A stretch of 64,000 nucleotides of DNA from an uncultured Acidobacteriota bacterium (GCA_963809485.1 CAWEJX010000007.1:640001-704000); one strand, 5' to 3'. Numbered from the stretch's first letter, positions 44,685 to 50,158 are shown. The notes: generated by a model not told the origin, from the letters alone. Numbers and translations are program-made.

Positions 44685-45296
44685 TTGAGACTGCTTCGAT
44701 CTGCCATGGCTGCGGTACCTGTGCTTCTAATCTGCGCCACGATCGCCAACGCTCAACGCGCCGATTTCTATTTCGCAATGGGAACGGCGCGCGACGATGC
44801 GATCGAGGATTTCATCGACCCTGTCCCCGGCTTTGCTCCGGGCGAGATGGACGGCCTTTTCGGAACCATCGGCGGCGGCTATATGTTCAACGACACCCTG
44901 GGCCTGGGCGGGGAAGCCTCGTTTCGCTTTGCGCAGGGAGACTACGCAGGTTTTGGCTACCGGCCCGTTTTTTACGATTTCAACGGGATCCTGACCCCGA
45001 CGCTCGGCTCGGACCGCGTGATGGCGGAATTCCAGGGCGGCATCGGAGGCCTCAGTTTAAGGGTCTACGGCGGGGAGGAGTACTGCGATTATTACACGGG
45101 CCAGTGCACCAATTATCTCGGCAGCGTCAACCATTTCCAGGTTCACGCCAGCGCGGGGCTGCGCATCTACGTGACGGACAGCATCTTTATCCGCCCCCAG
45201 TTCGACTACCGATACGTGCCGAACCTCAACGAAGAGTTCAAGAGCAACTCGGTTTTCCAGTACACCGTCGCCATCGGCTTCAGCAGCTTCCGGTAG
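44685..45296 (+). CDS. Outer-membrane beta-barrel protein
   Basis: TTG start with RBS; signal peptide; alternating amphipathic strands; GYRPVFYDFNG, IFIRPQFDYRYV. Confidence 0.8.
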   Translation: MRLLRSAMAAVPVLLICATIANAQRADFYFAMGTARDDAIEDFIDPVPGFAPGEMDGLFGTIGGGYMFNDTLGLGGEASFRFAQGDYAGFGYRPVFYDFNGILTPTLGSDRVMAEFQGGIGGLSLRVYGGEEYCDYYTGQCTNYLGSVNHFQVHASAGLRIYVTDSIFIRPQFDYRYVPNLNEEFKSNSVFQYTVAIGFSSFR

Positions 45297-45868: not shown

Positions 45869-46381
45869 TTACCAGTCTTCACCTATCATGGGCAGGATTG
45901 ACGCGATCCTCAAATTAACCAGCGTGTCAATCCGGTGGGAGAGCTGGAAAAACTGAAACACCCGCCGGGGAGACAGGACCTCGATGAACTTCTTATAATA
46001 TTTCCTGTTCAGGGCGCCTTTCTGTTCGCTGATTTCAAAAACTTTCTCCGCCAGCTCTTTCGCCTTCGCGTCACTCAGGTTTTTTACGTTCGCCTGGTAG
46101 TCCTTAATAAGCGCAATGCTCCGGTCGGTAATCGCGCCCCATTCCCTGTCGTACTCTTTATACAGCGGCCAAAACACCTTACCTTCCGCCTCAGTGAAAT
46201 TCATGGAACCGCTGATGATTTCCTGGGTCTTGGCGCGCAGTTGCGGCGCTCCAAGATCCAGGAAGGCTTTGAGATTGTCGCCGGGGCCCTGCGCCGGCGT
46301 TGTCGAAGGCAGGGCGAACAAAAAAACCGTGAAGAGTCCCATGCAGATTACCATCATCTTTTTGAAGAGGTCCCGTTTCAT
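45869..46381 (-). CDS. Secreted alpha-helical hypothetical protein
   Basis: Signal peptide; MNFTEAEGKVFWPLYKEY motif. Confidence 0.75.
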   Translation of the reverse strand: MKRDLFKKMMVICMGLFTVFLFALPSTTPAQGPGDNLKAFLDLGAPQLRAKTQEIISGSMNFTEAEGKVFWPLYKEYDREWGAITDRSIALIKDYQANVKNLSDAKAKELAEKVFEISEQKGALNRKYYKKFIEVLSPRRVFQFFQLSHRIDTLVNLRIASILPMIGEDW

Positions 46382-46546
46382 GCTCTCAATCCTCCCGTTC
46401 ATAGATAGGATCGCCGGCAATCATATCCGGCATATAGGCGAAATCGCCGGTTGTTTCCCTGGGAATATGCGCTTCTGTTCGTCTGGACGCTATCCCGTTT
46501 TTCAATTATTATACAGCGCATCGATCATTTTGACCGGAGGGATCCC

Positions 46547-47134
46547 ATGGCCTTACGACTTCGCATCTGCATAACCGCTTCCCTTGCGTTGCTCCTGTCG
46601 GATTTCATCGCCATCCCAGTCATGGCGCAGGACGTCAGTACCCAAGTGACTCCCGGCCAGGATTTTTCGAAATTCCGCAGGTACAGCTGGAAGGAGAACA
46701 TGATTGCTCCAAGTGCGCTTCCCGAGGAAAGGAAAGAAGTGGAGAAGAAAATCGTGGATATTGTCACCCGGGAACTCGCCAAAAAAGGCTACACAGAAGA
46801 TTCCCAAAATCCGGATTTCTACATAGAAATCAGAGCCGCCTCAATGCCCACCGAATTGACCACTTCCGCAAATCTCGCCAGGAGGGTTCCGGAAGGCTCC
46901 GACGTTTTCAGTTCCACCTATCCCAATGGACCGGGAGTCAATATCCTTCTGACGATGACGGCAGGCGCCCGCATCACGGTCACCGACAGCACGTCTAACG
47001 CGACGGCGTGGGAAACACTGGTATCCAAGAAATACAAGGACCTGGACAAGGCGAAAAGGAACCTGGACAAGGAACTCGATCGCATGTTCACGAAAGCGTT
47101 CAAGAGCTTCCCGGTCAGGAAGAGCCAATCATAA
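46547..47134 (+). CDS. DUF4136-like periplasmic protein
   Basis: Signal peptide; DFSKFRRYSW, ELAKKGY, NPDF, FKSFP. Confidence 0.75.
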   Translation: MALRLRICITASLALLLSDFIAIPVMAQDVSTQVTPGQDFSKFRRYSWKENMIAPSALPEERKEVEKKIVDIVTRELAKKGYTEDSQNPDFYIEIRAASMPTELTTSANLARRVPEGSDVFSSTYPNGPGVNILLTMTAGARITVTDSTSNATAWETLVSKKYKDLDKAKRNLDKELDRMFTKAFKSFPVRKSQS

Positions 47135-47511: not shown

Positions 47512-48027
47512 CTAGCGGTAGGTGCTCCCGGGAGCCTTGTAGGCGCTTGCGAGCGAGATCTCCAGGAAGACGATGGGCTTGGTGACTTTCCTGATGTTCA
47601 ACGGGCAATGGGGCACGTTCGATGGAATCGTGATGCACGAGGTTTGAGTGATTACGTGCTTTTCATGTTCTGCGCCCATCTCAACTTCCACCTCGGCTCC
47701 GAAGTCGGTGATATCGCGCGGGTTGCCGCCTATGAAACACAGGACTTCCTCATTGGGATGCGAGTGCGTCTCCTTGAAAAGAATCGGCTTCGTGACGCAA
47801 TGATACCCCATGCTGACGTTGGCTTTCAGCTCGCCGTTGTGCGAAAGCAGGGAAGTGCCGGTGTACTCTTCCGGGATTACTCTATAGATATCTTTTGAGA
47901 GGATATATTTCCCGTACTTCGATGTATCGGATTTGCCGGCCCCCTGTGAAAATGCACCGGCAAGGCTCAAGGCCAGCAATCCCGCAAAAAGAAATCCCAA
48001 CATCAATCCTGTCATCAGCTTTTTCAT
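47512..48027 (-). CDS. Sec-exported cupin-fold protein (paralog 6)
   Basis: MKKL hydrophobic signal; SKYGKYIL; HSHPNEE...IPSNVPHCP; RBS AAGGAGG. Confidence 0.85.
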   Translation of the reverse strand: MKKLMTGLMLGFLFAGLLALSLAGAFSQGAGKSDTSKYGKYILSKDIYRVIPEEYTGTSLLSHNGELKANVSMGYHCVTKPILFKETHSHPNEEVLCFIGGNPRDITDFGAEVEVEMGAEHEKHVITQTSCITIPSNVPHCPLNIRKVTKPIVFLEISLASAYKAPGSTYR

Positions 48028-48160
48028 GATCTTCCTCCTTAACCGGACCGGTAAAGAGCCCGGTATCGTTTCCGACATTATGGGGCTCATGTCCGCATTA
48101 TGGGTACAGAAAAAAAACTGAATGCCGACGGGCGCCGGCAAGGGCGCCGGGGGACGCCGA

Positions 48161-49285
48161 TTACGGATCCACGGGTGCCGCGAGGATTGTTTCCAGATCC
48201 GAGATCGCCTCCTGAAGCGGCGACGGCGCAGGGTCCAGGGCGGCGGCGCTCTTCAGGTATTCCAGAAATGGCAAGCCCGTATCGGAGGGGATCGTCAATC
48301 GCTCGCCTCGATGAAGGGCAAAAGCTTTGTCACCCTCGATCGCCAGGCAGGCTAAGCGCGATCCATAGGAGGCCGAAAGCCCCACATCGATGAGAAGCAC
48401 CTTCCCTCCGAACCGCGGCATGATGGCCCCTGCAGTCGTCGTGTGGCCGATGACGATGCGGCGCGCCCCGTGCAGATCCAAAAACTGCCGGACATGTTCC
48501 GCGAGAGCCGCTTCCTCTCCGTTTGCGAGACCCCGGTACCAGAGCGGTCCCTCGTCGTCCTGGATCAGTCCGCCTTTGAGGGTGCTCAAATCGTTCATCT
48601 CGTCCCGGATCTTGCTATTGATCAATTCGAAGGGAATGTCACCGTATTTGGGGCTGATGCCTCCGTGGACAAAAATCGTGTCGTTGATTTGAATTACCGT
48701 ATTGTGCGTTCGGATCCACTTGCCGTATTTGCCGTTCGGTCCATACTGGAAGCGGTGTTCGAAGTAGCCCAGGGGGTGCCTATCCTCCCACGCCTTCCGG
48801 TAAGCGTCATCGGGTTTCGCGGCCTGCGCATTGGCCGGATCGGCGGCGAGTTCCTTGAGGTGCGCCTCATACATTGCCTGGCGCACCTTTACCGAGTTGG
48901 CATCGCGGAAGGCGGCGAATTCCTCCGGTGTGACATAGCGCAGATCCCCGTAAATATTCAGCGCCTCATGATTGCCAAGCAAGGCGTGCACGGCGCCGCC
49001 GGAACGGCGCGCCTGCTGCTCGAGGTTCATCAGGAGATCCATGATCTTGCGGCTGTCGGGACCGCGGTCCATAAGATCGCCCGTCTGCACCAGGTGCGTT
49101 TTCCCGCCGCTCCATTTGTTCCGCTCATTCATTACGCCGGCGGAGCGAAGGGCAACCACCAGCTGCCCGTAGTCGCCGTGAACGTCGCCGACGGCAACAA
49201 TCCGGGGCACGCCTTCCCAGGAACTATCGGCCCTGGCCGAGGCGGCGGAAATTAGCAGGCATAAAATAATTACAGTGCGACGCAA
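48161..49285 (-). CDS. Secreted metallophosphoesterase (Shewanella-like PPP phosphatase)
   Basis: Signal peptide ending ARA; GDVHG, QTGDLMDRG, GNHE, FVHGG, GPLWYRG, GHT, IDVGLS. Confidence 0.9.
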   Translation of the reverse strand: MRRTVIILCLLISAASARADSSWEGVPRIVAVGDVHGDYGQLVVALRSAGVMNERNKWSGGKTHLVQTGDLMDRGPDSRKIMDLLMNLEQQARRSGGAVHALLGNHEALNIYGDLRYVTPEEFAAFRDANSVKVRQAMYEAHLKELAADPANAQAAKPDDAYRKAWEDRHPLGYFEHRFQYGPNGKYGKWIRTHNTVIQINDTIFVHGGISPKYGDIPFELINSKIRDEMNDLSTLKGGLIQDDEGPLWYRGLANGEEAALAEHVRQFLDLHGARRIVIGHTTTAGAIMPRFGGKVLLIDVGLSASYGSRLACLAIEGDKAFALHRGERLTIPSDTGLPFLEYLKSAAALDPAPSPLQEAISDLETILAAPVDP

Positions 49286-49339
49286 TAGGTCTGTCTCGCT
49301 TTCCGGTGCGAACAGGATCCCGAAGGATCCGTTCCTTCG

Positions 49340-50158
49340 TTAGTAAAGAACGGCATTCTCACCTTGTTTTTCTATAAGTTCTTCAAAATAGGTTACGATG
49401 CTGTCGCGCCGCTTCATAACCGCCCCGACCTCAGCACTATTGAGGCAATCCTTCGTTCTTTCTGCCAGTTCCTGCCCATCAAGAGCCTGAAGCCTTTCGA
49501 GCAGGCTGCGGCTGCAGCGGACCAGGTCTTTGGGATTCTTGAGCTTGGGATTGAGCCGGAAGGCGCGTGTGAAATCAATCATATACACCTTCCAGTCGTT
49601 GCCAATAAGTATATTGGTGGCGTTGCGGTCCGTGTCGTAGATCAGCTGGCTGAACACCCGCAACTCGTATATGGATTTGTTCCATGATTCGGGGTCGGGC
49701 GCAGGAATTTTCTTTTGCAGCCTGTCGGCTTCGTCCATCTGGACATCGAGCCACCAGGCCAGCGAACCCGTTTTCCCGTTCCACCGCCGTAAAACCGTTA
49801 CAGGCAGCATGTGATCCAGGCCCAGAAGCTTTGAGAGTTCATAGGCTGCAACGTTATAGAGATAGGAATCCACAAAGTTGATCTCGCTGGTCCCGGTGGC
49901 GAACTGCTTGAAGTTGCGCCGCTCATCGATGGATTGAAAAAGCGCATCATGAGTGATTTTGCCATCTGTAAGAGTCAGGCGATATGGGGAAGTAGTTCCC
50001 TTGCTCGTTCTTTTGGACTGGATCACCTTCGCATTGAGAAGAAACTCGCGCTTTTGCTCCGCCGTCAGCTGCTGTGCTGTCTGCGCAAGGCACAGGGTTG
50101 AGAACAACACCAGGGCAATTACGGGCAGCCGCTTGAGGCGCAATCGATGGATCTGCAT
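49340..50158 (-). CDS. Secreted atypical kinase-like protein (PI3/4K-, Fam20/four-jointed-like motifs)
   Basis: Signal peptide ending CLA-Q; KGTT loop, YNVAAYELSKLLG..LPVTV, LIYDTDRNATNIL, MIDFTRAF. Confidence 0.7.
   Translation of the reverse strand: MQIHRLRLKRLPVIALVLFSTLCLAQTAQQLTAEQKREFLLNAKVIQSKRTSKGTTSPYRLTLTDGKITHDALFQSIDERRNFKQFATGTSEINFVDSYLYNVAAYELSKLLGLDHMLPVTVLRRWNGKTGSLAWWLDVQMDEADRLQKKIPAPDPESWNKSIYELRVFSQLIYDTDRNATNILIGNDWKVYMIDFTRAFRLNPKLKNPKDLVRCSRSLLERLQALDGQELAERTKDCLNSAEVGAVMKRRDSIVTYFEELIEKQGENAVLY

Follow-up and report, generated by a model that had tools for sequence, protein, structure and literature searches.

A predicted exported Fam20-like kinase-fold protein encoded beside a Shewanella-like phosphatase in an uncultured Acidobacteriota bacterium

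The sequence under study is a window of 64,000 nucleotides from an uncultured Acidobacteriota bacterium (GCA_963809485.1, CAWEJX010000007.1:640001-704000); positions are counted from its first letter. A first-pass annotation had picked out two co-oriented genes 54 bp apart as a candidate kinase and phosphatase pair acting outside the cytoplasm, and reading of the open reading frames (ORFs) bore out this layout. The upstream gene encodes a kinase-fold protein, P0001, and the downstream gene a Shewanella-like (Shelph) phosphatase of the PPP family, P0002. The locus is made up as follows (aa, amino acids).

49340..50158, minus strand: kinase-fold gene, encoding P0001 (272 aa plus stop, ATG start); Fam20/PI4KII-like, predicted exported, of the Gln/Asn clade described below
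49286..49339, minus strand: spacer between the P0001 and P0002 genes, 54 nt, read from the sequence
48161..49285, minus strand: phosphatase gene, encoding P0002 (374 aa plus stop, TTG start); Shewanella-like PPP metallophosphatase, predicted exported
48113..48140, minus strand: terminator-like hairpin with T-run, from a consensus scan, beginning 20 nt past the P0002 stop

The ATG at 50158 is preferred as the start of P0001: a longer, TTG-initiated frame brings no conserved sequence, and the nearest relatives are likewise 272 aa long. The nearest relative, locus L001, keeps both the TTG at which P0002 begins and the sequence just before it (the 3' half of the spacer), and there a P0002 orthologue of 83% identity lies directly after a kinase-like gene. 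The terminator-like site, a pattern match only, has a stem of 7 pairs (5 GC) and a T-rich tail; the same consensus scan gave 3 such sites in the region when 3.7 were expected. The gene after P0002 (47512-48033, minus strand) has a likely start of its own. Because of this separate start and the terminator-like hairpin, P0001 and P0002 have the appearance of a two-gene unit, and the sequence makes it likely that they form one two-gene transcript ending at the hairpin. A search of sequencing runs listed no RNA run that contains the sequence, and DNA runs with small shares only. The spacer was predicted to fold at -19.4 kcal/mol (z -2.45). A palindromic hairpin in it (49315-49339, minus strand; GGATCC-TTCG-GGATCC with a UUCG-like loop) is absent from L001 and was dropped as a feature.

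Searches with P0001 alone yielded nothing usable. In Pfam only a noise match was obtained, with no Fam20C even at E <= 1 and no PF00454; the best phmmer match in the PDB stood at E 0.84; and NCBIfam gave weak matches to SCO1664 and Kdo kinase, far under the cut-offs. A family profile and a structure model were therefore needed. The family proved large, with 1406 proteins at E <= 0.001 in a word-indexed search, all unnamed or called 'hypothetical protein' save one evident misannotation, and 2272 cluster representatives, 378 of them at E <= 1e-30, in an exhaustive search. Both the profile and an AlphaFold (AF2) model were based on alignment A1, which holds 73 members. Positions L40, D97, P119, R124, D177, D195, F200 and R250 are invariant in A1, and E143, R146, N182 (72/73), R198 (71/73) and R251 are nearly so.

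The AF2 model of P0001 (pLDDT 93.3, pTM 0.87) had only Fam20 structures as its top Foldseek matches, with hydra Fam20 (5XOO) first at 7.6e-9. Structural comparison by VIA-align gave Z scores of 20.5 for hydra Fam20 (root-mean-square deviation 3.4, 233 residues aligned), 20.1 for Fam20C and 19.1 for Fam20A, and these Fam20 matches span P0001 residues 25-272. PI4KII alpha and beta followed in the range 17-18 (beta, 18.1), then H. pylori CtkA at 15.5-16.0, HipA/HipT at 10.6-12.4 and VPS34 at about 10. The A1 profile reached FAM20A at E 5.2e-10, Fam20C at 1.5e-5 and xylosylkinase at 7.6e-5, and PI4KII at only 0.13-0.66. The 73 relatives were also compared with the curated families: Fam20C (PF06702) was reached at E <= 0.01 by 5 of the 73 only, although a tandem-duplicated relative, P0124, scored 29.4 bits against the cut-off of 26.8, and PI3_PI4_kinase (PF00454) was matched at E <= 0.01 by 25 of the 73 (best 6.1e-6), while the relatives scored individually stayed under its 27.1-bit cut-off. 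A neighbouring cluster in the Atlas is auto-named 'phosphatidylinositol 4-kinase family protein'. Judged by profile and model, P0001 is a distant Fam20/PI4KII homologue outside the curated Pfam Fam20C family. The PI3/4K and Fam20-type resemblance proposed in the first-pass annotation is upheld by the AF2 model, Foldseek, VIA-align and the profile, which agree on a kinase-like fold of the Fam20/PI4KII sort.

The kinase-like domain also occurs fused to glyoxalase-like domains (P0398, 588 aa) and with C-terminal TPR repeats (P0194, 563 aa).

The putative active site of P0001 was located by hidden Markov model (HMM) alignment to Fam20 proteins and by covariation within the family.

49613..49630, minus strand: catalytic loop D177-R-N-A-T-N182; D177 in 73/73; aligns with the catalytic-Asp loop of Fam20A (HMM alignment)
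49574..49576, minus strand: codon of D195, the metal-binding Asp in a DFG-like motif, I-D-F; D195 in 73/73, with R198 and F200 after it
49934..49936, minus strand: codon of Q75, which takes the place of the ion-pair Lys (aligned with K285 of human Fam20C); covaries with position 102
49853..49855, minus strand: codon of N102, which takes the place of the ion-pair Glu (aligned with E311 of human Fam20C), from HMM alignment and covariation
49868..49870, minus strand: codon of D97, at or beside the acid specific to Fam20 (Fam20C E306, hydra Fam20 D152); D97 in 73/73

According to the accessible text of PMC4421793 and PMC5865150, human Fam20C has the ion pair K285-E311, the acid E306, the catalytic D458 and the metal-binding D478, and the Fam20-specific acid is Gln in the pseudokinase Fam20A and Asp152 in hydra Fam20. 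The D-R-N-x-x-N and IDF motifs seen in the first-pass annotation are present as D177-R-N-A-T-N182 and I-D195-F, and the invariant D177 and D195 match the catalytic and metal-binding Asp of Fam20C. HMM alignment pairs D195-x-x-R198-x-F200 with the metal-binding D-N-x-R-x-F of Fam20A and R250 with the Arg of the last helix. The alignment of D97 shifts by one residue between the HMMER alignments to Fam20A and Fam20C.

Where Fam20C has its ion pair, the window protein has Q75 and N102 instead. N102 is placed at E311 because a conserved I-A-A-F/Y stretch anchors the alignment, and Q75, at the 'A-x-F-Q' strand end, is equated with the ion-pair Lys because this position is Lys or Arg in other branches and covaries with position 102. 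Over 280 domains, a sample that leans toward close relatives of the query, the residues at positions 75 and 102 were Q,N in 201, R,E in 24, K,E or K,D in 18, Q,D in 10 and H,Q in 8; position 75 was K or R in 43 domains, 42 of which had E or D at position 102. The earlier reading that the usual Lys and Glu are replaced (ALFQ, YNVAAY) thus stands for the window protein and has to be restricted to its clade, since a K-E or K-D pair is kept in 21 of 37 Shelph-linked domains. In an unrooted FastTree tree of 159 domains, the Gln/Asn (Q-N) state corresponds almost exactly to a single split (76 of 78 rows; support 99) with the window protein inside. We infer that the Q-N state is derived, because Fam20 itself carries K-E.

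Conservation in the Q-N clade was assessed in 23 genes whose products are 50-78% identical to the window protein. D97, D177, N182, D195 and R198 were kept in all 23, and R124 in 22 (His in one). The clade further has conserved residues of its own, H70 (96%), D71 (82%), W135 (97%) and D138 (84%), located on or near the strand that carries Q75. The nucleotide pocket of the Q-N clade appears remodelled rather than decayed, since the ion pair has become Gln-Asn while new conserved residues (His70, Asp71, Trp135) have arisen.

P0002 is a calcineurin-type metallophosphoesterase (Pfam Metallophos, 2.3e-12) and carries the motifs of the PPP family.

49172..49189, minus strand: PPP motif 1, GDVHGD, residues 33-38; G33, D34, H36, G37 and D38 invariant in 40 relatives
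49061..49081, minus strand: PPP motif 2, GDLMDRG, residues 69-75; G69, D70, D73, R74 and G75 invariant in 40 relatives
48965..48976, minus strand: PPP motif 3, GNHE, residues 104-107; G104, N105 and H106 invariant in 40 relatives

HGG and GHT motifs are also present, so that the complete set of PPP motifs ascribed to P0002 in the first-pass annotation could be retrieved. The closest solved structure is the psychrophilic phosphatase of Shewanella (1V73, E 1.1e-36, the match spanning both halves of P0002; also 2Z72 and 2ZBM), deposited as a protein-tyrosine-phosphatase. The next solved matches are far weaker (a tetraphosphatase at 1.3e-3, RLPH2 at 2.7e-3), and in NCBIfam the tetraphosphatases ApaH (5.9e-8) and PrpE (2.4e-5) were matched far under their cut-offs. 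In the accessible part of PMC2887360 the bacterial-PPP motif is given as (I/L/V)-D-(S/T)-G; P0002 and its close relatives depart from it with I-D-V-G, and the fused relatives described below read I-D-T-G. The family comprises at least 4992 proteins at E <= 1e-10. By its sequence, P0002 is a Shewanella-like PPP phosphatase (Shelph/SLP).

The C-terminal tail of P0002 (residues 334-374; 48161-48286) has Y343, A347, A348, D351, P352 and S355 invariant in 40 relatives, and this tail of 40 residues is missing from one fused form, L068. It might be a docking element.

The distribution of the two genes was surveyed in 201 Acidobacteriota genomes, so the range described is that of this phylum. Shelph presence was scored at E <= 1.1e-38; 6 Shelph rows consisting of about 100 N-terminal residues only and 7 partial kinase-like rows were dropped before counting. 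A kinase-like gene was found in 48 genomes by solid matches (49 with one genome of weak matches only) and a Shelph gene in 46, of which 45 carried both; 3 had the kinase-like gene alone and 1 the Shelph gene alone. By position, 29 of 52 Shelph genes, in 27 genomes, had a kinase-like neighbour at 5 kb or less (28 at 1.5 kb or less), as against about 0.5% expected by arithmetic from roughly 2-3 copies per genome of about 5 Mb. Several of the unlinked cases sit on strongly fragmented assemblies. For Q-N-type genes, a Shelph gene was present in the fetched flank (1.5-4 kb) of 9 of 23.

The two domains are also joined in one polypeptide. An N-terminal Metallophos domain with a C-terminal kinase-like domain was found in 13 of the 20 longest relatives scanned, and a single ORF with both domains in 13 of 28 fetched linked loci; this census rests on the exhaustive-search list and the fetched loci, a length-restricted search having given 2 long relatives. 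The AF2 model of a fused protein had a pLDDT of 89.4 and a pTM of 0.72. A predicted complex of the two mature window proteins (score 0.06; mark 0.32) was counted neither for nor against the pairing. Since fusions, co-occurrence and gene position are three independent lines, the pairing of kinase-like and Shelph genes is beyond chance. Comparative evidence marks the two as a functional unit across the Acidobacteriota, whether co-occurring, adjacent or fused, and the check on conservation of the pair and on fusions that the first-pass annotation had proposed thereby comes out in favour of the pair. The genome of the window has a single copy each of the kinase-like and Shelph genes; because it has this one family member, it needs no K-E paralogue as helper.

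In another locus, L007, a 121-aa ORF with a signal-peptide-like start (L007:4997-5362) lies between the kinase-like and Shelph genes, and in L010 and L011 a gap about as wide is seen. The product of this ORF may be a substrate or play an accessory part.

Both window proteins begin with a signal-peptide-like stretch, as the first-pass annotation had claimed.

50084..50158, minus strand: signal-peptide-like N-terminus of P0001, about residues 1-25; four K/R preceding a hydrophobic stretch (Kyte-Doolittle 2.74 over 10 aa)
49229..49285, minus strand: signal-peptide-like N-terminus of P0002, about residues 1-19; two Arg preceding a hydrophobic stretch (Kyte-Doolittle 3.26)

In the P0001 model, residues 1 to about 25 have low pLDDT and lie outside the fold. 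By the same hydropathy heuristic, such starts are conserved in relatives, in 55 of 69 Met-starting kinase-like proteins, 32 of 36 Met-starting Shelph proteins and all 13 fused proteins. Export of P0001 and P0002 by Sec-type signal peptides is the best explanation of these predicted N-termini. Of the three outcomes that the first-pass annotation had named as refuting it (a fold unlike that of kinases, a pairing that is not conserved, a cytoplasmic protein), none was obtained, the last as judged by the hydropathy heuristic.

In one large relative, P0256 (1167 aa), a Hanks-type Ser/Thr kinase (1-260) is followed by a predicted membrane helix (588-614) and a Q-N Fam20-like domain (909-1166). The Fam20-like domain is placed outside the membrane because the single helix separates it from the cytoplasmic Hanks kinase, and it there takes the place of a sensor ectodomain.

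A third gene recurs with the pair in relatives. When ORFs were clustered over 29 loci (28 fetched loci and the window), a family of about 950 aa was found in 13; the other recurrent clusters were the pair itself and its antisense shadows. These proteins consist of a TLC/NTT nucleotide-transporter domain of the ATP/ADP type and HEAT repeats (NTT-HEAT), some with a C-terminal cyclic-nucleotide-binding domain (cNBD). The one in L046 scored 56.7 bits for TLC (PF03219; cut-off 21) and 74.5 bits for HEAT_2, and that of L053 additionally has cNMP_binding; NCBIfam identifies the transporter as an NTP/NDP exchange transporter at superfamily level only. The HEAT and cNBD parts are presumably cytoplasmic, as judged from the cNMP-binding domain and from what is known of NTT proteins, the hydropathy profile of NTT-HEAT (10-16 overlapping peaks) being too blurred to fix a topology.

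PF03219 was matched in 57 of 201 genomes (56 of 200 without G049, a genome flagged as unpublished) as against 0 of 14 control genomes. It was present in 41 of 46 Shelph genomes and in 16 of 155 others, and since a protein query found NTT matches in all five of the TLC-negative Shelph genomes, the Pfam survey under-counts. A TLC gene lay within 10 kb of 19 of 52 Shelph genes, 7 Shelph genes had the transporter near and no adjacent kinase-like gene, and 36 of 52 adjoined one or both partners. The association extends to the Q-N clade: 6 of 13 Q-N loci had an NTT-HEAT gene within 4 kb, its product 53-57% identical to that of L046, and the three genes were co-stranded in 5 of the 6. In genome G110, for example, one strand carries NTT-HEAT-cNBD, a Q-N kinase-like gene and Shelph, in this order. 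Often the transporter gene stands in one operon with the pair or is divergent to it across a shared promoter region.

In L047 (G046:C23:41377-48880), one Shelph gene is followed by five tandem, same-strand kinase-like paralogues of K-E type (about 273-275 aa), and an NTT-HEAT gene lies divergently upstream of the Shelph gene and the array. Some of these paralogues have changed catalytic residues, e.g. Arg in place of D177 and Gln in place of R198 in L047:6919-7740. Phosphatases of the SpoIIE/PP2C type with dCache-HAMP or FHA-GAF parts were also seen near the module, 8 of the 29 clustered loci having 9 such ORFs between them (among these L045:1193-3136 and L051:10815-12458); they are common in the phylum, and their presence is possibly chance.

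Taken together, the fold, the pairing and the predicted export lead us to favour, tentatively and at somewhat below even likelihood, a coupled extracytoplasmic phosphotransfer module of a Fam20-like enzyme and a Shelph phosphatase. The Fam20-like enzyme would phosphorylate an envelope or periplasmic substrate, protein or glycan, by means of D177, N182, D195 and a bound metal, and the Shelph would take off that phosphate, or another on the same substrate, as in bifunctional kinase-phosphatases. The NTT-HEAT beside the module in relatives would offer a route for ATP into the periplasm, exchanging ATP from the cytoplasm for ADP from the periplasm, and its cytoplasmic HEAT and cNMP-binding parts would gate the transporter. 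Nothing supports the unusual phosphate donor suggested in the first-pass annotation; ordinary nucleotides crossing the inner membrane are favoured because NTT-HEAT recurs next to the module in relatives. The wider proposal, that Acidobacteriota run a dedicated ATP-driven periplasmic phosphorylation with a gated NTT-HEAT(-cNBD), a Fam20-like writer and a Shelph eraser, is conceivable, and we hold it to be doubtful.

Several points weigh against these proposals. The window protein is without the Lys-Glu ion pair that, by the accessible text of PMC4421793, canonical kinases and Fam20C require, and no compensating Lys or Arg was found in the Q-N clade alignment. Because the pocket is remodelled, nucleotide use would be the least certain step for this clade. 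A tblastn search of the 64-kb window returned no NTT gene; the NTT-HEAT of the same genome (946 aa, C7:74919-77639) is on the same contig at a distance of about 610 kb, and the NTT-HEATs of this genome are only 28-31% identical to the module-linked ones. As far as the accessible part of PMC5381601 goes, NTT-HEAT has no characterised member, and its direction of transport is unassigned. A Shelph gene is close to only 37 of the 127 kinase-like copies, and the co-occurrence counts exceed the number of independent events, the relatives sharing kinship. A kinase and a phosphatase fused in one protein would add and remove phosphate to no purpose, save where there is regulation or each has its own target site. 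Finally, the export calls derive from a hydropathy heuristic that looks for basic residues and a hydrophobic run.

The genome of the window further has a second NTT-HEAT on contig 20 and a short NTT of 437 aa. Orthology between its own NTT-HEAT and the module-linked NTT-HEAT of G110 is not claimable at 28% identity. The gene of a PAS-GAF signalling protein, divergently oriented (G000:C7:78128-79138; L073:4710-5720), adjoins the unlinked NTT-HEAT.

The loss of both ion-pair residues (Q75, N102) raises the question whether the Q-N kinase-fold protein is a pseudokinase, that is, a subunit that binds a ligand or substrate and serves to target or regulate the Shelph, on the model of Fam20A regulating Fam20C or of the regulatory subunits of eukaryotic PPP phosphatases. 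Loss of a single acid makes Fam20A a pseudokinase (PMC4421793, accessible text), P0256 puts a Q-N domain at the sensor site of transmembrane Ser/Thr kinases, and kinase-like copies outnumber Shelph genes about 2.4 to 1, with tandem arrays in which five follow a single Shelph, which suggests many targeting subunits per catalytic subunit. It would be unusual, however, for a dead enzyme to retain D177, N182, D195, D97 and R198 in 23 of 23 genes at 50-78% identity. The Q-N clade has moreover acquired new conserved pocket residues, and its genes still share operons with NTT-HEAT. We consider a pseudokinase role unlikely.

The transporter and the phosphatase admit a different use, in which the module would scavenge extracellular nucleotides or organophosphate, processing nucleotides or dinucleoside polyphosphates in the periplasm for import of the products by NTT-HEAT. 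Shelph is related to ApaH and PrpE (the far sub-threshold P0002 matches given above), 7 Shelph genes have a nearby NTT and lack a kinase-like gene, and characterised NTTs are all nucleotide importers or exchangers in the accessible part of PMC5381601. A phosphatase adjoining a nucleotide importer would nevertheless destroy its cargo, and the solved structure nearest to P0002 was entered in the database as that of a protein-tyrosine-phosphatase. No known nucleotide-processing enzyme of the Fam20/PI4KII fold was among the fold matches, nor were phosphate-regulon genes found in the neighbourhoods examined, and scavenging is to us an improbable function.

The pocket might instead serve other nucleotide-dependent chemistry, for example AMPylation as in SelO or SidJ, with the metallophosphoesterase removing the modification. 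Kinase folds with altered pockets catalyse such reactions (the KINtaro paper, PMC10870513, as far as accessible), and the Q-N clade keeps the metal ligands and the link to a nucleotide transporter while its ion pair is changed. The likeness to SelO and SidJ is, however, no more than that of the generic fold, and the plain K-E pair in 21 of 37 Shelph-linked domains makes the ancestral module resemble an ordinary kinase; other chemistry is thus quite improbable. That the genes are chance neighbours with unrelated functions could be argued from the 37 of 127 kinase-like copies near a Shelph and the 23 of 52 Shelph genes without a kinase-like gene within 5 kb, but is extremely improbable in view of both genes occurring in 45 of 49 genomes having either, 29 of 52 lying within 5 kb versus about 0.5%, and recurrent fusions.

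Downstream of the pair, the minus-strand gene at 47512-48033, immediately past the terminator-like hairpin, encodes a protein of 173 aa that starts with a signal-peptide-like stretch and matches nothing in Pfam. Further envelope proteins follow it in a row, namely a DUF4136 protein (46451-47134), an exported protein of 183 aa (45869-46420) and an outer-membrane beta-barrel (44685-45296).

The periplasm is generally held to contain neither ATP nor kinases that depend on it, and secretory kinases of the Fam20 type are regarded as an animal or eukaryotic invention. If the proposed module is real, it would mean regulated phosphorylation outside the bacterial cytoplasm with a defined ATP route, a first function for the widespread NTT-HEAT proteins of free-living bacteria, and a bacterial counterpart to the kinase system of the eukaryotic secretory pathway, to which it might even be related. 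A large bacterial family of Fam20-like fold (2272 cluster representatives), predicted exported, is in any case tied to a PPP phosphatase and repeatedly found near a nucleotide transporter. Its natural K-E, Q-N and H-Q variants are a ready series on the role of the ion pair in this fold, and the three soluble or reconstitutable proteins make the system directly testable.

No bacterial system of Fam20-like protein, Shelph and NTT was found in the literature, supplements aside, as far as the sources (including PMC7948968, PMC5865150, PMC9758233, PMC10870513, PMC12599244 and PMC5381601) were accessible. While each part is of a known kind, we know of no description of the exported bacterial family, of the way it is coupled to Shelph or of the NTT-HEAT link.

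Kinase and phosphatase are joined in one polypeptide or operon in the present module as they are in bifunctional enzymes. Bacterial Pnkp, AceK and PFK-2/FBPase-2 are such enzymes; they are cytoplasmic and use other kinase folds, whereas the module is predicted exported. The Pnkp phosphatase is itself a calcineurin-type metallophosphoesterase, and a weak NCBIfam match to Pnkp was recorded. Addition of phosphate on the periplasmic side has a precedent in the LpxT reaction on lipid A (PMC2229476, accessible part); unlike P0001, LpxT is a membrane phosphotransferase without a kinase fold. Of the bacterial kinases, H. pylori CtkA (3AKJ/3AKK/3AKL) and those of the HipA type fall in the same broad fold group and are clearly more distant than Fam20 and PI4KII. 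CtkA and HipA-type kinases differ from P0001 in their biology and have no phosphatase partner. The phosphate donor of LpxT is undecaprenyl pyrophosphate.

Closer likenesses are found for each part. P0002 shares GDxHG, GDxxDRG and GNHE with the Shelph of Shewanella (1V73, 2Z72, 2ZBM) and differs in its conserved 40-residue C-terminal tail, its genetic tie to a kinase-fold partner and its I-D-V-G. NTT-HEAT and NTT-HEAT-cNBD fusions of free-living bacteria were described, with function unknown, by Major, Embley and Williams (2017, PMC5381601), and the third gene here has the same architecture of TLC and HEAT, with or without cNMP_binding. The accessible part of that paper mentions no kinase or phosphatase with NTT-HEAT, so the link to Shelph and Fam20-like genes comes from the present analysis. 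PI4KII alpha and beta, the second-best fold match, are cytosolic or membrane-peripheral, whereas P0001 is predicted exported; unlike PI4KII, nothing in this analysis points to a lipid substrate for P0001.

The best structural and profile match of P0001 is the Fam20 group, which comprises the protein kinase Fam20C, the xylose kinase Fam20B and the pseudokinase Fam20A. The P0001 family shares with it the catalytic Asp loop, the D-x-x-R-x-F stretch, the conserved Arg-Arg of the last helix and, as far as the placement of D97 allows, the acid just before helix C, and both stand behind a signal peptide, outside the cytosol (by prediction in P0001). In each, one branch has lost active-site charge, in opposite ways: the Q-N clade loses the ion pair and keeps the putative Fam20-type acid, and Fam20A is the reverse. 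In its accessible part, a survey treats FAM20 as specific to eukaryotes or Metazoa (PMC9758233). P0001 is bacterial and, at about 245 aa when mature, smaller than Fam20 proteins of 350 aa or more, and its family, unlike Fam20, is paired or fused with a PPP phosphatase.

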